Under the pieces are notes generated by a model. The model worked only from the letters and a program-made list of their open reading frames with translations, was not told the DNA's origin and did not search any database. A stretch of DNA of 64,000 nt. Origin: a virus (taxonomy: Duplodnaviria > Caudoviricetes). Positions 8,967-24,876 of this stretch are shown piece after piece. The stretch covers positions 2,338 through 66,337 of IMG/VR virus record IMGVR_UViG_3300031813_000016; one strand, 5' to 3'. Both the position numbers and the translations under genes were made by a program. Numbering within the stretch: the stretch's first letter is position 1; every line of letters begins with the position of its first letter.

Positions 8967-9626
8967 TTAAATCAAATCTAAAGCTCTAATTATAACTTCA
9001 ATTTCATCTATATGTGGAGCACTTGAATTAAAGGTAATTATTTTCCAACCGTTCTCTTCTAATCTTTCCCTTCTAAAATGTCTATCATTAAATCCTTGAT
9101 TATGCCAGAATGTATTAGGAAATTCAAAGTCAATCATTTTAGATGGAATTGAAATATCAGTTATTACTTCATAAGTTATATGACCAGTTAAAGTTATATA
9201 TTTAAAATTATAATTATTAACAACATCTGAAAAATATTTTTTAAGAAAATTAATAATATTTAGTTTATCAGGATGAACTCCATAATAGTTTTCTTCAATT
9301 TTAATTTCTGGTTCTTTAGTTGTTTCAGGAACTAATTTTTTAGAATTATTTTTTAAAAGTTTTTCTAATTCATTATCAGAAATTTCATCTTGTATATCAT
9401 CAATTTCTGATTCTCCAGAAAAAATATCACCTTTACTAACATTTTGTTGTCTTGCTTTAAATGTTTTACCAGCAACTGGAGCACCTGGAAATTTAAGTTT
9501 ATACTCATTCATATTAGGAATATCATGAATTTTTTTCATATGAGTAGGAGTTAAAATTGAAAATGACTTTTTACATATTTGACATATAACTTCACCTGTT
9601 TCTGTATAATATTCTTCACTCATCAT
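8967..9626 (-). CDS. Zinc-finger + DUF559/Vsr-like PD-(D/E)xK endonuclease
   Basis: VICQICKKSF..LT.THMKKIH..Y..KFPGAP (C2H2 finger); C-terminus TDISIPSKMIDFEF...WH...RLEENGWKII. Confidence 0.55.
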   Translation of the reverse strand: MMSEEYYTETGEVICQICKKSFSILTPTHMKKIHDIPNMNEYKLKFPGAPVAGKTFKARQQNVSKGDIFSGESEIDDIQDEISDNELEKLLKNNSKKLVPETTKEPEIKIEENYYGVHPDKLNIINFLKKYFSDVVNNYNFKYITLTGHITYEVITDISIPSKMIDFEFPNTFWHNQGFNDRHFRRERLEENGWKIITFNSSAPHIDEIEVIIRALDLI

Positions 9627-9689: not shown

Positions 9690-10040
9690 ATGTTTTATTA
9701 CATTTTTACAGTAGGTGTTAATGATATTCATTCAAAAAATCCAGGAGAATTATATTTAGATAACTTTTTTGAGTATACAAATGATACTGTAGATATATGT
9801 TTAGAAGCAAAATCTGTATTTGAAAATGAATTAATAAAAACTACACAAGATGAACTATTTAAATCTTTTGATATTAAAAAGATAATAAATGCTTTTCAAA
9901 TGATTAAACTTAGATCAGGTATTCAGAATACAATTATTTGTAAATGTAAATGTGAATATCAAATTGAAAGGGAGGTGTTAGAAACTCTAGTTAAATATTC
10001 AACTAAAGATGAGATTAAGAAATACCAAATTAAAATGTAA
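9690..10040 (+). CDS. Hypothetical protein
   Basis: 116-aa ORF with GGAGG RBS; first gene of the plus-strand island. Confidence 0.7.
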   Translation: MFYYIFTVGVNDIHSKNPGELYLDNFFEYTNDTVDICLEAKSVFENELIKTTQDELFKSFDIKKIINAFQMIKLRSGIQNTIICKCKCEYQIEREVLETLVKYSTKDEIKKYQIKM

Positions 10041-10983: not shown

Positions 10984-11051
10984 GAAGTTAAACCTTAACC
11001 AATTCTATACATTCAAATGTATAGATAAAATCAAACAAAAAGGAGATTCAA

Positions 11052-11858
11052 ATGACTCAGAAAAAAGTGGAATTATTCATCATTGACCCGCAGGTAGGTT
11101 TTTGTCAGCCAGGTAAACCGTTATTTGTTCCTGGAGCTGATACAGATATGACTCGTCTTGCAACAATGGTAAAAAGAATTAAAAATGATTTAAATGATAT
11201 TCACGTTACATTAGATAGCCATCATTATTTCGATATTTCACACCCATCTTTCTGGGTGGACCAAGCAGGTAAAGAACCTGGTTGGTTTACTCCTTTATCT
11301 CTGGAAGATTTTCTTAATGGAAAACTTCGTCCTAAATTTCCTCAATTTTATGATGAAGTTAAAAATTATCTTCAAGCTTTGAAAGATAATAACAGATATA
11401 TGCATATTATTTGGCCTCCGCATTGTCTTATTGGCTCTGACGAACATGCAGTTATTCCTGATTTATATGAAGCAATTCATACATGGGAAATGGAATCTGA
11501 TGGAGCATTTATAAACTTTGTTACAAAAGGATCTAATTATTTAAGAGAACACTATTCTGGAGTTAAAGCTGAAGTTGAAGATCCTAAAGATCCCACAACC
11601 AAATTAAATACAAAACTAATTCAAACAATGGAACAAGCAGATGAAATTCCTGTAGGTGGGCAGGCTTCAACTCATTGTGTTGCAAATACAATGAGAGATG
11701 TTGTTAAAAACTTTAATAGTGCATTATCAAAATTTGTTATACTTGAAGATGCAATGAGTCCTGTTCCTGGTTTTGAAAAAGAAGCTGATCTTTTCTTTAG
11801 CGAAATGAAAGCTCTTGGTGTAAGGTTCTGTAAAACAACTGACTACAGTGTTTATTAA
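11052..11858 (+). CDS. pncA: Nicotinamidase/pyrazinamidase (isochorismatase-like cysteine hydrolase)
   Basis: IIDPQVGF (catalytic Asp), TLDSH..SH (metal ligands), WPPHC..G, KG..EHYS, GQASTHCV (catalytic Cys). Confidence 0.85.
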   Translation: MTQKKVELFIIDPQVGFCQPGKPLFVPGADTDMTRLATMVKRIKNDLNDIHVTLDSHHYFDISHPSFWVDQAGKEPGWFTPLSLEDFLNGKLRPKFPQFYDEVKNYLQALKDNNRYMHIIWPPHCLIGSDEHAVIPDLYEAIHTWEMESDGAFINFVTKGSNYLREHYSGVKAEVEDPKDPTTKLNTKLIQTMEQADEIPVGGQASTHCVANTMRDVVKNFNSALSKFVILEDAMSPVPGFEKEADLFFSEMKALGVRFCKTTDYSVY

Positions 11859-11907
11859 TATATCATAGTTTCTTATATATGATATTAATTATATATGAGG
11901 GAAAATT

Positions 11908-12294
11908 ATGGAGGTATTTAAAGCAGGACAAAAAGTTAAATTAAAAACAATTGAAGAAATAGAACTAATTTTAAAAGGAAAAATATATCCTGGAGCAAGA
12001 CAATATTGTGGTTCAAGTTTTGTAATATTTATACAATCAAGACCAGGATATTGGATTTTACAAAATTGTCCTTATGAATGGCCTACTGCAGTAATAGAAC
12101 CAATAGTTGAAGACCTACCAAATAAAACTAAAAAAGTTGATATGACATGGCACCCAGAAGTTAAATCTATGATGGACATTATAAAAAATGATTTAAAAGA
12201 ACTTGGTTTTATTAATAATGAACCTGGAAGATATCATACATACGATGGACCAAGATTTGGTCATTACAGATTAAAAAAACATAAAGGAGATTAA
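11908..12294 (+). CDS. Hypothetical protein with SH3/KOW-like start (FKAGQKVKLK)
   Basis: 128-aa ORF inside the operon. Confidence 0.6.
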   Translation: MEVFKAGQKVKLKTIEEIELILKGKIYPGARQYCGSSFVIFIQSRPGYWILQNCPYEWPTAVIEPIVEDLPNKTKKVDMTWHPEVKSMMDIIKNDLKELGFINNEPGRYHTYDGPRFGHYRLKKHKGD

Positions 12295-12297
12295 CCA

Positions 12298-13053
12298 ATG
12301 CCTAAAATTCAATTGACTGACGAAACAATGATGATTAATACTGCTGCTGGTGTTGTGCAATATTCAGCAGTACATCCAGATCATCTTCAGGCAACCAAAT
12401 ATTGTCTGGCAACAATATGTGCTGATAATTCTTACAGTGTAAAACCTTTTAAAGATCTTCTTTTAACAGTTTACAAAGCTTCAGTGAATGCCTTAAAAGA
12501 AGATAAAGCTGTTGCAGCAAATATTTTAGTAAGAGCAACAACTTTTGAAGATAGTGATGTAACTGAAATTCATGGTTTTAGAATGCTTAAAACCATTAAT
12601 CCAGATACAGATTATAAACCTTTTGGGTGCAATGGTTCAACTCCATTGTTAGATGCAACATTTGATTCATTAACTTCTACTCTTGATTATGCAAAAACAT
12701 TGACTGATCAGGACTATACTGTTAATGGAATCATTTTTGTTATTACTGATGGATGTGAAAATTCATCAAAAATGATAAAAGACGTTTTAAAGATCAAAGA
12801 ACAATTGTCTAAAATAAAAGCAGATACAATTGAATCATTAAAAATGATTTTAATTCAAGTGAATGTTAATGACCAATATGTAAAAACTATCCTGGATAAA
12901 TTTTCAAAAGATGCAGGTTTTGATGATGTAATTGATGCTGGCGCAGCTGACCATAAATCAATTGCAAGGATCATAGGATTTATTCATAAATCCACATCTT
13001 CAACAAGTCAAGTAATCGGAACAGGAAGCGCTTCTCAACCCATAGCATTTTAA
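12298..13053 (+). CDS. vWA domain protein (TerY/YegL-like)
   Basis: MIDAS-type ADNSYSV, GSTPLLDA, FVITDGCENSS. Confidence 0.85.
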   Translation: MPKIQLTDETMMINTAAGVVQYSAVHPDHLQATKYCLATICADNSYSVKPFKDLLLTVYKASVNALKEDKAVAANILVRATTFEDSDVTEIHGFRMLKTINPDTDYKPFGCNGSTPLLDATFDSLTSTLDYAKTLTDQDYTVNGIIFVITDGCENSSKMIKDVLKIKEQLSKIKADTIESLKMILIQVNVNDQYVKTILDKFSKDAGFDDVIDAGAADHKSIARIIGFIHKSTSSTSQVIGTGSASQPIAF

Positions 13054-13063
13054 AATACCACAA

Positions 13064-13093
13064 GGAGAGGGAATCTTCAATGGTTCCCTCTCC
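13064..13093 (+). promoter_or_regulatory. GC-rich intergenic hairpin without U-tract
   Basis: ggagagggaa / ttccctctcc perfect 10-bp stem between the vWA and PP2C genes. Confidence 0.55.
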
Positions 13094-13106
13094 AAAGGAT
13101 AAATTT

Positions 13107-13970
13107 ATGATAAAAATTATTGAAGATTCTTTTTTCACAAGTGCTAAGAAACCTGAAAAGAATTGCCAAGATTATGTATTATCTGGTAATGACCCAATAC
13201 CTTATTTAATAGTCACTGATGGGTGTTCTGGGTCAAGATATACAGATGTAGGTGCTAGAATCATTGCACATAATGCTAAAAAATTTATTGAAAAAATTTT
13301 TAATAGAACTGATTTAGATCTTTTTGAGAATACCAAATTGACCCAAATGTTTTATGAAAATCTTGGTAACACTGTTATATTTAATTCAAAAAAAGCAACT
13401 GATAATATTCCAATTGAATGTTTAGATTCAACTTTAATTGTTGCTTTTGTTTATAATGATAAAGTTCATGTATTTATGTATGGTGATGGTGCAATTATAT
13501 ACCAATCTAATACTAAAGGATTAAATTCAATTATACCTGAATTTGAAGGTAATGCTCCTTATTATCTTTCTTATAAATGTAATATTAAAGCTGAAGCATT
13601 AATGGAAAGATTTGCCTCAACTTTTGAAGGTAGTAAAACATTAAAATACAATCTTAATTGTTATGATGTTGATATTAAATATAGTACTCAATTATTTCCA
13701 TATAATAATCCAAACATTTTTTCATTTGATGTTTCAGATCTTTCAATGTTGATGATTACTTCTGATGGTATTCTTTCATTTACTGATAGATGTAATAATC
13801 CAATTGATTTGAGTGATATAATTAAATTATTTACAGATATTAAAAGTAAAAATGGAGAATTTGTTAAAAGAAGATGTAATAAAGTTTTATCGAATTTAAA
13901 AGACCAAGATATTTTAAATTATGATGATTTAGCAGTTGCTACATTTTTGTTTACAGAGTTTCAACTTTAA
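13107..13970 (+). CDS. PP2C-family phosphatase (YegK-like)
   Basis: NCQDY, VTDGCSGS, DSTL, YGDG, ITSDGI, YDDLAV motifs. Start moved from 13080 to ATG 13107 (AAAGGA RBS). Confidence 0.85.
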   Translation: MIKIIEDSFFTSAKKPEKNCQDYVLSGNDPIPYLIVTDGCSGSRYTDVGARIIAHNAKKFIEKIFNRTDLDLFENTKLTQMFYENLGNTVIFNSKKATDNIPIECLDSTLIVAFVYNDKVHVFMYGDGAIIYQSNTKGLNSIIPEFEGNAPYYLSYKCNIKAEALMERFASTFEGSKTLKYNLNCYDVDIKYSTQLFPYNNPNIFSFDVSDLSMLMITSDGILSFTDRCNNPIDLSDIIKLFTDIKSKNGEFVKRRCNKVLSNLKDQDILNYDDLAVATFLFTEFQL

Positions 13971-13982
13971 AGGAGAATTAAA

Positions 13983-14169
13983 ATGGGATACAATTTAAAT
14001 TCAATGGATAAAGCAACATTAGTTGAAGTTGTAAATAATATGTATAAGAAATTAAAAGAAAAAAGTAAATACAAGTTTTAAATGTGAAGAATTAAGAAAA
14101 ATATGTATTGAATTAAAGCATAAACATTTTTTAGATACACCTTATTCAAGTTTTTATAAAACCTTATAA
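13983..14169 (+). pseudogene. Frameshifted paralogue of 14184..14372
   Basis: Strong RBS and ATG. One extra A in the A6 run at 14059-14064; after correction it reads ..KCEELRKICIELKHKHFLDTPYSSF, matching ..KRKDLERLIVKLKNTYFKDIPYTKL. Confidence 0.65.
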
Positions 14170-14183
14170 AAAGGAGAAATTAA

Positions 14184-14372
14184 ATGTCTGGAGGCTTTAA
14201 AGAAATTAATAAAGAAGCATTGATTGAGATAATTAATCATGTATATAGCGTATTAAAAACTGGAGAAAAAGTTTCATATAAATGGAAAAGAAAAGATTTA
14301 GAAAGACTGATTGTTAAATTAAAAAATACATATTTTAAAGATATTCCATACACTAAATTATTAGAATTATAA
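14184..14372 (+). CDS. Small hypothetical protein (tandem paralogue)
   Basis: 62 aa, AAGGAG RBS. Confidence 0.75.
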   Translation: MSGGFKEINKEALIEIINHVYSVLKTGEKVSYKWKRKDLERLIVKLKNTYFKDIPYTKLLEL

Positions 14373-14384
14373 AGGAGGCTAACA

Positions 14385-16094
14385 ATGCCTAAAGTGATTA
14401 TACAAGGTAAACCAAATGTAATTAATTTACATGATACAAATGACTTTAAAGCTTTAGGTGGAGAAGCCAAAATATATGAAAAAAATGGAATTATATATAA
14501 GATATATTTAGATCAATCTAAAATGATTCCAATGTCTAAAATACAAGAACTATCAGTTTTAGATCGTGAAAACATAGTAAAACCAAAAGATATTATTTTA
14601 AATGAAAAAAGTAGTGTAATTGGGTTTACAATGGATTATGTTAAAGGTTTGCCTATTGTAGCTTTATTTACTAATGATTTTAGAAATGATAACAATATTA
14701 CTCCAGAATCTACTTTAAAACTTGTTGAAAAAATACAAGAAGAAGTTGAATTTATACATAGTAAAAGATGTTTGGTTGTAGATTTAAATGAAATGAATAT
14801 ATTAGCAGATGAAAAGACTTATGAAAATCCATATTTTATAGATGTAAATTCATATCAAACTCCAAGTTTCAAAGCAACAGCAATAGCTCCTGGTATACGT
14901 GATTGGAAAACTAATACTTATAATACAAATACTGATTGGTTCTCATTTGCAATATTAGCATGTGAATTATTTATTGGCATTCATCCGTTTGAAGGAAGAC
15001 ATAATAAATATGATTCTACTCAATTTAAAGAAAGAGTTGTAGACTGTATTTCAATATTTAATAAAGATACAAGAGTTCCCAAAGCTACAAGAGATTTTAG
15101 TTTAATTCCAACTGAATATCAAAATTGGTTTATAAAACTATTTGAAAAAGGAGAAAGAATTCCTCCACCTACAATGGCTGGGTTAATGAATGTAACTCAA
15201 GTTAAAATACAAGTAATTCATTCTACTAATAATTTTATAATTCAATTTTTCAAAGAATATGATTCAGATATATATAAATATTTTACTTTTAATGGTAAAT
15301 CTGTCTCAACTCTGAAACATAAATTATATTTTGATAGATCTGAATATAACATTACTAGTCATAAAATTGATGTAATTTTTACACCAAAAATGTTAACTCC
15401 AATTCTATCAAAAATAGAAAATGGATATTTAGTTTTAAAAGATTTAACTACAAATAGTATTATTTCAACAAATACATTCTGTACCGAAAAATTTGTAATC
15501 AATAATGTTTTATTCTCAAGATTTGAAGGACAAGTTACTGAATGGAATATAGATCATTTTGGTGGAAATTTAATTTGTTCTGTTTCAACTATTTGGGGTA
15601 TAATGCCTAAATCTAGTCAGATTTTTGAAGGAACTATTTATCAAAATATTTTAGGAAATTCTTATTTCTTAATACCAGTTCCCATTCAAGGCAGTTCTAC
15701 ATCTTGTTATACTAAAGAAATAAAAGAATTAAATAATTACAAAATTTTAAATGCAAAACATGAAAATGGTTGTTTAATTGTAGTAGCAGATGATTTAAAA
15801 AATCAAAATCAATTTTATAAGAAATTAATTATAAGATTTGATAAGAACTATGATAACTATGATATCCGAGTAATTGATGTAAAAACTACTTTAATAAATT
15901 TTACAGTTCTTGATAATGGAGTTTGTGTAACAATACATGAGGATGACTCATTAGAAGTCTTCCATGTAAATATTGGATCTAAATTTACCAAAATTGAAGA
16001 TCCTGATATTAGCTCCAATATGATCTTGACAAAAAGTGGAGTAACTGTTATGTTTCATGTTCAAAATAAGTTGTATACTTTGAAAATGAAGTAG
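14385..16094 (+). CDS. Ser/Thr protein kinase (YegI-like) with C-terminal extension
   Basis: LGGEAKIY, YKIY, VVDLNEMNIL catalytic loop, IDVNSYQ, TDWFSFAIL..ELF.GIHPFEG. Confidence 0.85.
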   Translation: MPKVIIQGKPNVINLHDTNDFKALGGEAKIYEKNGIIYKIYLDQSKMIPMSKIQELSVLDRENIVKPKDIILNEKSSVIGFTMDYVKGLPIVALFTNDFRNDNNITPESTLKLVEKIQEEVEFIHSKRCLVVDLNEMNILADEKTYENPYFIDVNSYQTPSFKATAIAPGIRDWKTNTYNTNTDWFSFAILACELFIGIHPFEGRHNKYDSTQFKERVVDCISIFNKDTRVPKATRDFSLIPTEYQNWFIKLFEKGERIPPPTMAGLMNVTQVKIQVIHSTNNFIIQFFKEYDSDIYKYFTFNGKSVSTLKHKLYFDRSEYNITSHKIDVIFTPKMLTPILSKIENGYLVLKDLTTNSIISTNTFCTEKFVINNVLFSRFEGQVTEWNIDHFGGNLICSVSTIWGIMPKSSQIFEGTIYQNILGNSYFLIPVPIQGSSTSCYTKEIKELNNYKILNAKHENGCLIVVADDLKNQNQFYKKLIIRFDKNYDNYDIRVIDVKTTLINFTVLDNGVCVTIHEDDSLEVFHVNIGSKFTKIEDPDISSNMILTKSGVTVMFHVQNKLYTLKMK

Positions 16095-16102
16095 GAGGCA
16101 CA

Positions 16103-16381
16103 ATGGGTGAATTTGATTCCATTAAACAATTTTCAGTTAGATATAAATATGAAAATCTAATAGACGAATTTATTATGTTTAGACATAACCTTTCTAAAAA
16201 AAGAGACTTGCATGAAAAATGTAAAGGTTGTGGACATACTCATTATGAAGATGTAGATGGTATTATGAAAATTACTTGTAAATATTTTCAAACACCCTTA
16301 GTTGTAAAATTTCCATGTTTCTTTAGAGAAAATGTAATGCAAATTAATGAAATCAAGGAGAATAAAGATGACGTTATTTGA
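16103..16381 (+). CDS. Hypothetical protein (CKGC, TC, PC motifs)
   Basis: 92-aa ORF with GGAGG RBS. Confidence 0.65.
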   Translation: MGEFDSIKQFSVRYKYENLIDEFIMFRHNLSKKRDLHEKCKGCGHTHYEDVDGIMKITCKYFQTPLVVKFPCFFRENVMQINEIKENKDDVI

Positions 16382-16799
16382 AAGAATTAATATTGATAGA
16401 AAACAATGTTTAAAAGATGCTGATGTTGGAACTAGGCAATTACTTGGAATGGTAATTGCAAAAGCAACTTTAGTAAATAAAGTTCCAGAAGATGAGGTAG
16501 TTACTTCTGCAATTAGAAATTTAATAAAAGGAGCAAAAGAATTAATTGGAATTTTAGAAGTTAATCATAGTCCAGATAAAGAAGCTTTAGAAAAAGCAAT
16601 ATGGGAAATTCAAGTTCTTGAAGAATATCTACCTAAACAATATGATGAAGACACACTTAGTAAATTAATTAATAGGTCAATTCATTTATTAGGAAATAAA
16701 GATATTAAATCAATTATGAAATACTTAAATGAAAACCATAATGGATTATTTGATCGAGGTATGGCTTCTAAAATAATCAAAGAACAATTATCAAAATAA
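16368..16799 (+). CDS. GatB/YqeY domain protein
   Basis: LFERI..DRKQ.LK, DEVV..AIR..IK, EIQVLEEYLPKQ.DE..L, IMK.L...G..D.GMASKIIK. Confidence 0.85.
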   Translation: MTLFERINIDRKQCLKDADVGTRQLLGMVIAKATLVNKVPEDEVVTSAIRNLIKGAKELIGILEVNHSPDKEALEKAIWEIQVLEEYLPKQYDEDTLSKLINRSIHLLGNKDIKSIMKYLNENHNGLFDRGMASKIIKEQLSK

Positions 16800-16809
16800 G
16801 GATTAAGTT

Positions 16810-17280
16810 ATGTCTAAAATAGAAAGATTTGCAGGTAAATATGATTTTCTATCTAACTTTCCGTATGCATTAGTTTATTTAGATGATATTGCATATGATT
16901 CAGTTGAAAAAGGTTATCAAGCAGCAAAAACCTTTAATTTAGATTGGAGAAAAAAGATACAAAATTGTAGTAGTTCATGTTCAGCTAAAAGAATTGGAAG
17001 TCAAATAACTAAAAATGGTTTATTAAGACCTGATTGGTATGATGTAAATAAATCAATAATGAAAGAATTACTAATACAAAAATATGCATATCCAGAATTA
17101 CAAGAAAAACTTTTATTAACTAGAGGAAGGATTTTAATAGAAGGAAATTATTGGCATGATAACTTTTGGGGAGATTGTTATTGTGAAAAATGTAAAAATA
17201 TAAAAGGAGAAAATAATTTAGGAATATTAACTATGGAGGTATGTGAATTTTATTATAATAAGTTACCAAGAATTAAGTAA
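16810..17280 (+). CDS. NADAR family protein (YbiA-like)
   Basis: FLSNF, YDSVEKGYQAAK, AKRIG, RPDW..V..MKELL..KY, L.EKLL.T, LIEGN.WHDNFWG, G.N.LG.L.MEV. Confidence 0.9.
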   Translation: MSKIERFAGKYDFLSNFPYALVYLDDIAYDSVEKGYQAAKTFNLDWRKKIQNCSSSCSAKRIGSQITKNGLLRPDWYDVNKSIMKELLIQKYAYPELQEKLLLTRGRILIEGNYWHDNFWGDCYCEKCKNIKGENNLGILTMEVCEFYYNKLPRIK

Positions 17281-17318: not shown

Positions 17319-17415
17319 TTGAATATATTAAATCGGCCATATTAAACTGAGGTTCAAAATTGAATCTCAGTCATCTTTGTTTTAATTTTTAAACTTATAC
17401 AAAGGAGAATAAATT

Positions 17416-21004: not shown

Positions 21005-22909
21005 ATGGGGCTTAATCCAAACATATCTAAATTCGGAAAGTTGATTGGAATTGCAGCACTTGTTGGAGGTGTTGTTTTTTATGGAACAAGACCTGGTCAT
21101 TTCATGAGTATGGATTCAATAAAAGCAGTATTCCAGAAAAAAGTTGATCTTCCTAGTGTTGCTCCACTCAAAAATGTTACAAATGTTCCTCTCCTTCCTT
21201 TACCTTCAAAAAATGTTATTGGAACTGGTCCTAGCTACAGGGTTGAAGTTGCTCCTTGGAGTGCCCAAAATGGAGCATTCCTTGCTAATGGTGGACCTGT
21301 TACAACTGAGGGATCTATCCTTGCTGGTCTTGGTATTACCAATTTAAAATTCATTAGGCAGGATAGTTTTAAACAACAATCGGATGACCTTATTGCTTAT
21401 ATGAAAGAATGGAAATCAATGGGTGGTGGAAAAGCTAATCCCAATAAAGGTTGCCAATTTATATCTTTAATGGGTGATGGTTCTTCTTCATACCTAAGGG
21501 CAATCGTTGCTGAATTAACATCTGCTGGTTTTCATCCTCAAATAAAAGTTGCTCTTGGAAAGAGTGCAAATGAAGATGGATTCTGGGGTCCTAAAGAATG
21601 GAAAGATAAACCAAGTTCTATGAAAGGTGGAGTTGTTATTGGGGTGCTGTATGATGGGGATATGAACCTACCTTTGAAATATTGCCCGGATAATGATGTT
21701 CAAATGAATCCCAATATTAAGACATATGATCCTGATCGTATGAATATTATTCCTGCTCAAGATGATGATTTCCTAAAAGCAGTTGACCAATATAATGTTG
21801 GGGTTACAGAAGAACGTGAAATTTCACATAATGGAATTCTCACTGGAAAGAAAATTAAAATTACCACAGATAAATCAAAATCATCTACTACAAGTTTTAC
21901 TATAGCTTCAACTATTGGCGGTACACTTTATGTTGAAGCAGGTGTTGTTACATATACACCCGGAGACGTAAGAATTACAAAAGGAAAAGGTGGTCTTTTT
22001 CCAATTGTAACAACTTATGATTATTATTGGCAGATGCCTGATTTCCTTGTAACAACTAAAGAATGGGCAGATGCAAATCATAATGAAGTTAAGTCTATCA
22101 TCAAAGGTTTCTTACTTGGTGGTTCACAAGTCAAAGTTCATGATAAAGCTTTATTCAGAGCATGTGAAATTGCTTGTGATTTATATAAAGGAACTGGAGA
22201 AGAAGGAACTCCAAAATTCTGGTATACCAACTTTAAGAAACATGAAGTATCAAGTCCGGATGGTTCAGTTGATAAAGAAGGAAAACCTACAGGAAAAACT
22301 ATTCAAGTTAATGTAGGTGGGTCTATGAACTTCTCAATTGAGGATAACATTGTTGCATTTGGTCTTGAAAAAGGAGATGGTGGACCTGCTCAATCAACCT
22401 ATACAGTTTTTGCAGATAAAATGGTTGAATTATGGCCTGATAAGATGAAAGATTATCCTGCATTTCAAGATGTTTTTGATCCTTCATTCTTAAATGAAAT
22501 TACAAAAGAAACCACACTCAATCAAGAATTAACAATGAAACCTGATGTAGATGGTGCACCAATTCGTGAAACCATATCTACATCAAATAAGTCAATTCAA
22601 TTTATATCTGGAAGGTCTGAATTGACAGCAGAAGGTCGAAAGGAATGTAAAAAGCTTTTTAACGATGAGAATATTACCGGTCTTAAGCTTTTAATTACTG
22701 GGCATACTGACCGACATGGTTCTCATGAAACAAATATGAAACTTTCAAAAGATCGAGCAGAAACAGTTAAAAGGTTTTTGGCCAATCTTGGGTATAAAGA
22801 AGACTTAATTGATACCGATGCAAAAGGTGATACTGAGCTTCTTGACCCTGCAAATAATAGTACTGCTGATGCAAAGAATCGTCGAGTTGTGATCCAAATG
22901 GGTAGGTAG
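21005..22909 (+). CDS. ABC substrate-binding (NMT1/SsuA-like) + OmpA C-terminal domain fusion
   Basis: N-terminal anchor. SBP-like ..VTYTPGD..DFLVT.KEWADAN..VK.IIKG. OmpA motif IQFISGRSELT..LLITGHTDRHG....NMKLSKDRAETVK.FL...G...NRRVVI. Confidence 0.85.
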   Translation: MGLNPNISKFGKLIGIAALVGGVVFYGTRPGHFMSMDSIKAVFQKKVDLPSVAPLKNVTNVPLLPLPSKNVIGTGPSYRVEVAPWSAQNGAFLANGGPVTTEGSILAGLGITNLKFIRQDSFKQQSDDLIAYMKEWKSMGGGKANPNKGCQFISLMGDGSSSYLRAIVAELTSAGFHPQIKVALGKSANEDGFWGPKEWKDKPSSMKGGVVIGVLYDGDMNLPLKYCPDNDVQMNPNIKTYDPDRMNIIPAQDDDFLKAVDQYNVGVTEEREISHNGILTGKKIKITTDKSKSSTTSFTIASTIGGTLYVEAGVVTYTPGDVRITKGKGGLFPIVTTYDYYWQMPDFLVTTKEWADANHNEVKSIIKGFLLGGSQVKVHDKALFRACEIACDLYKGTGEEGTPKFWYTNFKKHEVSSPDGSVDKEGKPTGKTIQVNVGGSMNFSIEDNIVAFGLEKGDGGPAQSTYTVFADKMVELWPDKMKDYPAFQDVFDPSFLNEITKETTLNQELTMKPDVDGAPIRETISTSNKSIQFISGRSELTAEGRKECKKLFNDENITGLKLLITGHTDRHGSHETNMKLSKDRAETVKRFLANLGYKEDLIDTDAKGDTELLDPANNSTADAKNRRVVIQMGR

Positions 22910-22932
22910 TAAAATAACAAAAGGAGAATAAA

Positions 22933-23253
22933 ATGGGATTTCTTAAAGATGCAGCAGAAAAAGTTGAACAACTTGGTGGTAAAGTTGTAGAAGGAGCTCA
23001 AGCTCTTGGTGAAGCTGTGCAACATGGAGTAAATTCATTTAACGAAAAACTGCAAGAAAACCTGGGAGGGTCTATGGAAACCAACGAAGTTAAGGAAAGT
23101 GTAGCAAAATTCTGTTCACGTTGTGGCGGTGCTCTCAAAGATCGTCCGGAAGAAGTTGATGGGGATAAAGAATGCACAGTTTGCAGTCATATCTTCCATG
23201 AATGTGACTGTGGTTGCCACGGTCTTTGCGACAAGGGAATTAAACAAGCATAA
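22933..23253 (+). CDS. Hypothetical protein with C-terminal Cys/His zinc-ribbon cluster
   Basis: CSRCGG, CTVCSH, CDCGCHGLC. Confidence 0.65.
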   Translation: MGFLKDAAEKVEQLGGKVVEGAQALGEAVQHGVNSFNEKLQENLGGSMETNEVKESVAKFCSRCGGALKDRPEEVDGDKECTVCSHIFHECDCGCHGLCDKGIKQA

Positions 23254-23266
23254 TAAATAAACTGTC

Positions 23267-23298
23267 ATTGGGACTCCTGGGAAACTAGGAGTCCCAAT
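23267..23298 (+). promoter_or_regulatory. Intergenic GNRA-capped hairpin before the permease RBS
   Basis: attgggactcctgg-gaaa-ctaggagtcccaat, no U-tract, followed by GGAGG and a GTG start. Confidence 0.6.
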
Positions 23299-23308
23299 CG
23301 GAGGAATT

Positions 23309-24091
23309 GTGAAGTGGTTATTTATACCTAATACAAAGTTGAATCATAATCAATATATTTTAGTTAGAGTTTTCATTTACTCTATTATCCTTTTTATATG
23401 GTCTTTGAGCCATTCAACATTAATCCCTCCTATTCAAAAAATAATTTTTTCTTATCAATCTTTAGTAGTTCAAGATAAATTATTTCTTGAAATATTAACC
23501 AGCTCTATATTATTTGGAAAATGTCTTTTCTGGGTGATTTTAATTTCTTTTATATCTTCATATCTATCAGTAATTCCAATAATAAATCCTGTAGTACAAT
23601 TAGAAGCAAAGTTTAGAGCAATATCAATTGTAGGTATTCAATTGTTTTTTACCACAATAGCATCAGATGATTATCATTTAAAAATATGGATTATTGGTTT
23701 CTTTACAACACCATGGTTGATAACATCAATGCTTGATATAATTAAAAATATCCCACCCGAAGAATATGATCATGCAAGAACATTAAGATTTCCTGAATGG
23801 TATGTAACTTGGCATGTTGTAATTAGAGGTCAGTTTCATTTAGTTATGGATGCAATTATTCAAGTTTCATTAATGATTGTAGTATTCCTTCCTGTAGCTG
23901 AAAAAATTATTAAATCAGATGGAGGTATTGGATATCTTTTAACTAGTCTTGAAAGATTCCATGACAATACAAAGATCTATGCTATTGATATTTTATTAGT
24001 TATTTTAGTTTCATTATTAATAACTATTCTTAAATGGATTAGAGATTTGTTTTGCCCTTATGCTGAGAAAATTGAAGGAGTACAAAAATGA
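23309..24091 (+). CDS. ABC transporter permease (NitT/TauT, SsuC-like)
   Basis: Multiple TM helices; EAA-like IPPEEYDHARTL...W..V..HVVI; AEKI...DGGIGYL. Confidence 0.85.
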   Translation: MKWLFIPNTKLNHNQYILVRVFIYSIILFIWSLSHSTLIPPIQKIIFSYQSLVVQDKLFLEILTSSILFGKCLFWVILISFISSYLSVIPIINPVVQLEAKFRAISIVGIQLFFTTIASDDYHLKIWIIGFFTTPWLITSMLDIIKNIPPEEYDHARTLRFPEWYVTWHVVIRGQFHLVMDAIIQVSLMIVVFLPVAEKIIKSDGGIGYLLTSLERFHDNTKIYAIDILLVILVSLLITILKWIRDLFCPYAEKIEGVQK

Positions 24092-24876
24092 GTCAAACTC
24101 TTTTAAAAATAACTGACTTAAGACATAGTTTAGGTGGTAAAATAATATTAAAAAATTTCAATGGAAAAATAGAAACTGAAAAAATAGATGAAGGACATGG
24201 TGAAATTATAGCAATACTTGGGCCTTCTGGTGTAGGTAAAACTACATTATTTAAAATTCTTTCAGGTATTATATATCCAGATAAAGGAACTATTGAATTG
24301 TTGTCCAGAAAAGACAACATGAAATACATACATCCACGCCAAGGTGTTATGGGTGTTGTTGCTCAAAAATATCCTTTATTTAAACACTTAACAGTTTTAG
24401 ATAATTTAAAAGTTACAAAAAAATCAAAAGATGAATGTATTGAAATGTTGAAATCATTTGGTTTAGAAGAACATGTTGATAAATATCCATGTGAATTGTC
24501 TGGAGGCCAACAACAAAGAATTGCAATAGCTCAACAGATATTATGTAGCGATCAATTTTTATTATTAGATGAACCATTTTCAGGTGAAGATTTACTTTCA
24601 AAATGTGAAATTTGTAAAATGCTAAAACGTACTGCAGATTTAAATGAAACAAATACCATCATAGTTATAACACATGGTATAGATGAAGCAATAAAAGTTG
24701 CAAATAAAATTTGGCTAATTGGTAGAGATAGAGATGAGAAAAAAAATATTATACCAGGAGCATATATAAAAGAAGTAGTTGATATTGATGCAAAAGAAAT
24801 GTCACGAAAATGTTGTAGCACCCCACAATTAAGAGAAGTGTCAGATTACATAACTAATAAATTTAAGGATCTATAA
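24088..24876 (+). CDS. ABC transporter ATP-binding protein (TauB/SsuB-like)
   Basis: GPSGVGKT, VAQKYPLF, LSGGQQQR, LLLDEPFS, ITHG. Confidence 0.95.
   Translation: MSQTLLKITDLRHSLGGKIILKNFNGKIETEKIDEGHGEIIAILGPSGVGKTTLFKILSGIIYPDKGTIELLSRKDNMKYIHPRQGVMGVVAQKYPLFKHLTVLDNLKVTKKSKDECIEMLKSFGLEEHVDKYPCELSGGQQQRIAIAQQILCSDQFLLLDEPFSGEDLLSKCEICKMLKRTADLNETNTIIVITHGIDEAIKVANKIWLIGRDRDEKKNIIPGAYIKEVVDIDAKEMSRKCCSTPQLREVSDYITNKFKDL

Follow-up and report, generated by a model that had tools for sequence, protein, structure and literature searches.

The window analysed here is a 64,000-nucleotide stretch of DNA (positions 2,338 to 66,337) of the IMG/VR virus record IMGVR_UViG_3300031813_000016 (Duplodnaviria; Caudoviricetes), and it comprises nearly the whole of that 66-kb record. 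Four genes between positions 11,052 and 16,094 of the window encode a PncA-type nicotinamidase, here called X, a protein with a von Willebrand factor A (vWA) domain, a PP2C-family phosphatase, and a protein kinase. The four genes, referred to below as the cassette, are the following:

11052..11858, plus strand: X, a long PncA-type nicotinamidase with an isochorismatase fold, 268 amino acids, assigned from a profile and active-site residues
12298..13053, plus strand: TerY-like vWA protein, 251 amino acids, assigned from the residues of the metal ion-dependent adhesion site (MIDAS), AlphaFold and Foldseek, and hhalign comparison with YegL
13080..13970, plus strand: PP2C_2-family Ser/Thr phosphatase, 296 amino acids, assigned from Pfam PF13672
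14385..16094, plus strand: Ser/Thr kinase, 569 amino acids, assigned from Pfam Pkinase; a Hanks kinase domain of the YegI type spans residues 1-270, and residues 278-569 are all-beta

An original prediction, made from the letters of the window, had placed four open reading frames (ORFs) at these positions. They were found there, as were the motifs that it quoted, ADNSYS in the vWA protein and GGEA, DLNEMN, and IDVNSY in the kinase. Its description of a four-gene block holds for the genes themselves, but it omitted two ORFs, 11908-12294 and 14184-14372, which interrupt the block.

The single sequence of X scores 16.3 bits against Pfam family PF00857, under the 27-bit cut-off, and its phmmer match to PncA of M. 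tuberculosis has an E-value of 0.006. The profile of the X family, built from 36 relatives, matches yeast Pnc1 (PDB entry 2h0r) with an E-value of 1.4e-17, and eight of the ten PDB matches of the profile bear the names nicotinamidase or pyrazinamidase. The catalytic triad D12/K159/C209 is invariant in the 36 relatives and aligns with the nicotinamidase triad of 3pl1 and 2h0r. The metal site D55/H57/H64 and residues W121, H124, and C125 are also invariant, and the WPPHC motif of X aligns with that of M. tuberculosis PncA. X is ~50-80 residues longer than the solved nicotinamidases, and ~50 additional residues are positioned between its metal site and WPPHC. No alignment column was found that separates cassette-linked X from stand-alone X or from X in pncA-pncB-type arrangements, and these are therefore the same enzyme. 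Judged by its sequence, X is probably an ordinary, though long, nicotinamidase, to which the triad of vWA protein, phosphatase, and kinase would be an add-on.

The vWA protein has no match in Pfam, and the profile of its family retrieved nothing from PDB sequences at an E-value of 0.01. All 31 relatives retain the MIDAS residues D43-x-S-x-S47, T115, and D151. The AlphaFold model of the protein has a pLDDT (predicted local distance difference test) score of 87.5, and its top Foldseek matches are all vWA or integrin I domains. Comparison of the family profile with E. coli YegL by hhalign gave 78-82% and an E-value of 1e-5, over an alignment that covers nearly the full length of the proteins and includes a Ser-rich C-terminal tail. 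This tail (S230-S237, GTG, and a terminal F) is predicted to be disordered, is conserved in the family, and is aligned to the tail of YegL. In two metagenome-assembled genomes (MAGs) of Armatimonadota, the vWA protein and PP2C are encoded by a single ORF (L101:7908-9746 and L104:7342-9423); in their close relative L110 they are separate. The single ORF could be a real fusion, or could result from a lost stop codon or an assembly error.

The phosphatase matches the Pfam family PP2C_2 (PF13672) with an E-value of 1.9e-12, above the cut-off, and its metal-binding aspartates D31, D47, D136, D229, D282, and D283 are invariant. PphC of E. coli is likewise a PP2C_2 member, and the direct hhalign comparison of the phage PP2C with PphC is weak (30%).

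The kinase matches Pfam Pkinase with an E-value of 1e-11, above the cut-off, and all its relatives retain residues G25, G26, K39, D133, N138, and D153. The catalytic motifs of the locus had been predicted to be intact, and the invariance of the catalytic residues across relatives agrees with this. The kinase domain aligns with that of YegI over 250 columns (hhalign probability 98.5%, E-value 1.9e-15), and the model of the kinase has the Hanks kinase fold with a Z-score of 18.4. For the C-terminal ~290 residues (278-569), the model predicts ~29 beta strands at high confidence. A structure search with the whole kinase model was dominated by the kinase domain and was filled by kinases. The non-kinase matches in BFVD, a collection of viral models, are seven-bladed propellers, COG3391, and RCC1 proteins, and by these models the C-terminal domain looks propeller-like. 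It has no informative sequence match in PDB, no neighbour in the ESM Atlas, and no sequence similarity to the tail of YegI. A zinc ribbon of the TerY-C type is absent: residues 278-569 contain no CxxC pairs, and there is no Pfam match past the kinase domain. The all-beta domain was found only fused to cassette-type kinases. In a separate observation, yegI of E. coli K-12 (L003, 5040-6986, minus strand) has no Pfam Pkinase match at an E-value of 0.001 and a weak match to a helix-hairpin-helix (HhH) domain.

According to PMC11090510, which summarises Anantharaman, Iyer and Aravind 2012, a TerY-P triad combines a Ser/Thr kinase and a PP2C phosphatase with a TerY-like vWA protein. The proposal that the phage genes form a TerY-P-like triad stands as regards composition and order, which are those of E. 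coli yegL-pphC-yegI, and the YegI-like kinase, but not as regards the zinc-ribbon tail. In PMC11090510, the kinases of TerY-P systems end either in a zinc ribbon, in the classical and CoCoNuT-linked forms, or in an OB fold, in the anti-phage form of Gao et al. 2020. The tails of triad kinases are evidently variable. The TerY-P models of PADLOC and DefenseFinder matched none of the phage proteins even at an E-value of 10, and they equally failed to match the control proteins YegL, PphC, and YegI of E. coli, so that this comparison speaks neither for nor against TerY-P.

The neighbourhoods of three distant vWA homologues contain X, vWA, PP2C, and kinase genes together, in two gene orders. A search of viral contigs with the single kinase sequence found no locus, whereas seeding on the profile of X succeeded. 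Loci were collected with the X profile alone, and their flanks were scanned with hidden Markov models (HMMs) of the vWA protein, PP2C, and kinase; a locus was counted as complete if all four genes were present within 7 kb. Genome loci were drawn from species-representative genomes. The cassette is complete in 70 of 83 viral loci and in 25 of 80 genome loci, so that the survey of PncA, vWA, PP2C, and kinase neighbourhoods that had been suggested as a check found them co-conserved. Incomplete viral loci are mostly truncated at the end of the contig or at the flank limit. The co-occurrence of the four genes in ~95 loci is far above chance. The genes are ordered X-vWA-PP2C-kinase in 90 of the 95 complete loci and PP2C-kinase-X-vWA in the remaining five. 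The median gap from X to the vWA gene is 35-47 nucleotides. Unrelated ORFs are often inserted between the members of the cassette in phages; these insertions notwithstanding, the cassette is conserved down to sequence identities of 39% for X and 20% for the kinase. The PncA gene, which the original prediction had described as standing in front of the triad, does precede it, but it is not an accessory: X is the fixed fourth member of the cassette, its most constant component, and its anchor.

Complete chromosomes of Capsulimonadaceae and Chthonomonadaceae, as well as one Paraliomyxa isolate, carry the cassette. These chromosomal loci have a G+C content of 57-71% and are flanked by housekeeping genes. 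In a kinase tree (FastTree, midpoint root), the viral copies are far more diverse, and within them is nested a single well-supported clade that contains nine of the ten chromosomal copies from Armatimonadota; the tenth (L130) is paired with a viral copy. The direction of transfer is only suggested by this tree. The public phage collection contains the cassette in three uncultured genomes of 462-595 kb and in one gut fragment, and in no cultured phage. With ~100 loci that extend from huge phages to chromosomes of Armatimonadota, the cassette is no curiosity of a single genome.

Some loci with cellular labels resemble those of phages. The 37.7-kb contig L138, labelled as a MAG of a Thermoplasmatales archaeon, has a G+C content of 31% and shares with the window phage the cassette and the upstream gene clusters c57, c58, and c34. 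L113, labelled as a Deltaproteobacteria MAG, has a G+C content of ~31%, and the kinases of L113 and L138 lie in the sub-branch of the window kinase, among viral copies. Both look like phage contigs that were binned into cellular MAGs. A recurrent neighbour in Desulfobacterales-type contigs, next to either the cassette or an X-vWA pair, is a large hybrid histidine kinase with the architecture HisKA-HATPase-REC-Hpt (L113:11073-13907, and also in L114, L116, L127, and L147).

The flanking genes of the loci were clustered, and recurrent clusters were named by Pfam. The recurrent extra neighbours are nicotinate phosphoribosyltransferase (NAPRTase, PncB) in 35 viral and cellular loci, NAD synthase (NadE) in 14, and an NrtR-type protein with Nudix and winged helix-turn-helix domains in 13. 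Several chromosomes of Capsulimonadaceae have the arrangement pncA-vWA-PP2C-kinase-pncB. In other bacteria, X is positioned directly 5' of pncB, or alone amid unrelated genes. Five complete or near-complete cassette phage genomes of 436-479 kb all encode NAD synthase and a nucleotidyltransferase of the NadD/NMNAT-type family (CTP_transf_like), and four of them encode a NAPRTase-family protein. In one of the five, NAPRTase-like and NadE genes are located immediately 5' of X. A link to NAD or nicotinamide status, which had been raised at the end of the original prediction, is the best-supported part of its reading.

Since a salvage enzyme anchors the cassette and NAD salvage is its recurrent context, we read it as the entry step of Preiss-Handler NAD+ salvage coupled to a TerY-P-like phosphorylation switch, present in huge phages and some bacteria. 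We propose this reading tentatively, with belief and doubt close to balance. X would deamidate nicotinamide to nicotinate, the nicotinamide being supplied by NAD-consuming enzymes, among them NADase defence effectors. Nicotinate would then be converted to NAD+ by PncB, NadD, and NadE, encoded by the phage or the host. The kinase may sense a ligand or a protein through its propeller-like domain and phosphorylate the Ser-rich tail of the vWA protein, and PP2C would reverse the modification. The vWA protein, whose gene nearly always follows X directly, may through its MIDAS bind X or otherwise control its activity, metal loading, or assembly. The phage would gain the maintenance of NAD+ during infection, possibly against NAD-depleting immunity. 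A more specific version of this mechanism appears unlikely: that huge phages rebuild NAD+ by the Preiss-Handler route with an entry enzyme gated by a switch that senses the collapse of NAD+ or the release of nicotinamide under NADase immunity, as a counter-defence distinct from the three described NAD+ reconstitution pathways (NARP1-3). If true, such a gated route would be the first concrete metabolic output of a TerY-P-type triad.

Some points weigh against coupling of the switch to NAD salvage. The genes pncB, nadE, and nrtR are absent from the window, although the fragment represents only ~21% of the genome, and at this completeness the lack of NAD synthase, NadD/NMNAT-type, and NAPRTase-family genes is uninformative. 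PncB lies within 7 kb in only 18 of 84 viral loci, so that the link to NAD is frequent and not universal. Furthermore, descent from a single ancestor could account for much of the viral synteny. An alternative is that the nicotinamidase and the triad have no functional coupling and are adjacent because of common ancestry and transfer as a block. A single broad group of huge phages supplies most of the loci, and the chromosomal copies of Armatimonadota fall mostly into one nested clade. Many bacteria have X as a stand-alone gene or paired with pncB, and no residue marks the cassette-linked enzyme. However, the adjacency outlasts deep divergence and many independent insertions, and the single rearrangement of the gene order keeps the X-vWA and PP2C-kinase pairs together. 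In addition, X-vWA pairs are present in Desulfobacterales-type contigs in which PP2C and kinase are absent within the flank. Taken together, mere co-inheritance is not a likely explanation.

It is quite unlikely that the phage uses the cassette as a genuine anti-phage system of the TerY-P type, for superinfection exclusion against competing phages, with the nicotinamidase as a mere neighbour or accessory. The match to yegL-pphC-yegI in composition and order and the YegI-like kinase would fit this, and protection against T7-like phages has been reported for TerY-P-like modules (Gao et al. 2020, summarised in PMC7699616 and PMC11090510). On the other hand, the kinase carries a propeller-like domain in place of the zinc ribbon, and the constant partner of the triad is a metabolic enzyme. 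The recurrent neighbours PncB, NadE, and NrtR, which are not defence genes, point to NAD salvage over a defence island. The location in an early island, the superinfection exclusion, and the role as a decoy for host TerY-P that had been offered as interpretations are not supported; nothing indicates any of them. That the cassette recycles NAD as a unit linked to a signal is more likely than that it is an anti-phage system which the phage has borrowed.

Phages are known to encode kinases, and the cassette kinase may alternatively act on host proteins in a takeover of the kind performed by Gp0.7 of T7, with PP2C limiting or timing its action, the vWA protein as a targeting adaptor, and the NAD genes unrelated. 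The intact residues suggest that both kinase and phosphatase are active, and the predicted propeller-like domain may bind proteins or ligands, which would suit such a role. Host takeover makes no sense, however, in the complete chromosomes of Armatimonadota, where the cassette resides beside housekeeping genes and pncB, and it leaves the fixed adjacency of X and the vWA gene unexplained. We consider it very unlikely. Least probable of all is that X hydrolyses another amide in vivo, such as a signalling molecule or a nucleotide that contains nicotinamide, with the cassette making or destroying a signal, since the extra ~50-80 residues of X and its single-sequence score below the Pfam isochorismatase cut-off are outweighed by a nicotinamidase-specific family profile with the full metal site and WPxHC, and by pncA-pncB-type pairing and NrtR neighbours that fit classical salvage I operons (PMC2330246).

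The surroundings of the cassette in the window contain the following additional features:

11005..11024, plus strand: perfect 8+8 inverted repeat, CTATACAT-TCAA-ATGTATAG, ~30 nucleotides 5' of the start of X and right before an AAGGAGA ribosome-binding site
11908..12294, plus strand: ORF of 128 amino acids between the X and vWA genes, with no family match
14184..14372, plus strand: ORF of 62 amino acids between the PP2C and kinase genes, with no match and of uncertain coding status
16347-16799, plus strand: YqeY-like gene, co-directional, 3' of the kinase gene
16810-17280, plus strand: NADAR-domain gene, co-directional, 3' of the YqeY-like gene
17346..17371, plus strand: terminator-like hairpin after the NADAR gene, from a consensus scan only

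The inverted repeat at 11005-11024 is the sole exact copy in the window. A 75%-identical relative of the locus (L006) has a different palindrome, of 7+7 nucleotides, at the same place (~9103-9121). The position of the palindrome is kept and its sequence is not, and it may therefore be a fast-evolving operator or a 5' RNA hairpin. NrtR was considered as the regulator of the window copy and rejected: the record contains no NrtR gene, and the palindrome does not fit the core of the NrtR operator, GT-N7-AC (PMC2330246). A scan for sigma-70 promoters did no better on the AT-rich DNA of the window than on shuffled sequence.

The 128-residue ORF has no homologue in any related locus, joins no cluster, and is absent from L006. 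It is therefore probably a lineage-specific insertion that does not belong to the cassette. A scan with NCBIfam added nothing. The cassette is part of a co-directional plus-strand block, which follows a divergent junction and has its start at 9690, and the hairpin at 17346-17371 is a possible end of this block. NADAR genes occur near the cassette in just ~10 of ~160 loci; NADAR is therefore a loose associate with an NAD/ADP-ribose theme, outside the core. Further 3', Pfam confirmed genes for an OmpA-domain protein (21005-22909), an ABC permease (23309-24091), and an ABC ATPase (24088-24876), which form a transporter-like operon at 21005-24876.

Among the genes of the record are those for portal and tail proteins, a DnaB-type helicase, and a family-B polymerase (PolB). 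The G+C content of the window is ~27%, and a DNA similarity search of the window against known phages returned no match. CheckV estimates the completeness of the 66-kb record as 21%, which implies a full phage genome of ~300 kb.

We found no description of a cassette of nicotinamidase, vWA protein, PP2C, and kinase in the searchable literature. The main text of a survey of huge phages (PMC7162821) does not contain the terms kinase, NAD, nicotin-, von Willebrand, or phosphatase. Phage G has a PncA-like gene of unknown role (PMC12484599). The cassette can, nevertheless, be compared with several known systems, each of which shares some of its components.

ArnB-type vWA proteins of the Sulfolobus archaellum network are under the control of Ser/Thr kinases and a phosphatase. 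They are, like the vWA protein of the cassette, cytoplasmic, and the structures 5a8j and 8s05 are among its many vWA matches in Foldseek. The archaeal network differs in protein families and partners and lacks a link to NAD; the likeness is a resemblance of fold and of the logic of a vWA adaptor controlled by kinases and a phosphatase.

In bacteria, salvage I operons consist of pncA-pncB, often with nadD or nadE, under the control of NrtR (Rodionov et al. 2008, PMC2330246). Relatives of X are likewise positioned beside pncB, nadE, and NrtR-type genes. The difference is that the triad is inserted directly after pncA, in some cases between pncA and pncB.

The NARPs of phages are composed of Adps and Namat (NARP1) or Nampt and NMNAT (NARP2; bioRxiv 10.1101/2024.02.11.579819), and, according to the abstract of PMC13464706, of PnuC and NadR (NARP3); that abstract names only routes NARP1-3. 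As in the NARPs, the phage enzymes of the cassette would start from breakdown products of NAD, and the related complete huge phages hold later steps of a route to NAD+. The cassette route differs in being the deamidated Preiss-Handler pathway of PncA, PncB, NadD, and NadE. The words nicotinamidase, PncA, PncB, NadE, Preiss, and nicotinic acid are all absent from the text of the NARP1/2 preprint, and neither that preprint nor the abstract of the NARP3 paper describes a NARP with a module of kinase, phosphatase, and vWA protein. A full-text search found no paper that connects phage PncA and PncB with NAD depletion. Depletion of NAD+ is a major theme of bacterial immunity, and its reconstitution by phages was found recently; a nicotinamidase route under the control of a signal in huge phages would extend this picture.

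The closest counterpart of the cassette is the TerY-P triad. PMC11090510 and PMC7699616 describe TerY-P as a predicted metal-sensing phosphorylation switch, of which the OB-fold form is anti-phage. The stand-alone TerY-P-like system of Gao et al. 2020, with its kinase-OB fold protein, as these two papers describe it, shares with the cassette the logic of three enzymes, which probably constitute a phosphorylation switch; the cassette is, in comparison, borne by phages, has a kinase tail that looks propeller-like, and includes an extra metabolic enzyme. The yegL-pphC-yegI triad of E. coli has the three components and their order in common with the phage genes. In contrast to it, the phage cassette has a nicotinamidase as a fixed fourth gene, its kinase ends in ~290 propeller-like residues instead of a zinc ribbon and unrelated to the tail of YegI, and its context is NAD salvage and not Ter, restriction, or CoCoNuT systems. 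Although TerY-P triads occur widely and one of their forms is anti-phage, their functions are, in the accounts consulted, predicted or hypothesised. The close variant described here is linked with a defined enzyme and with a pathway, so that its output can be tested directly.

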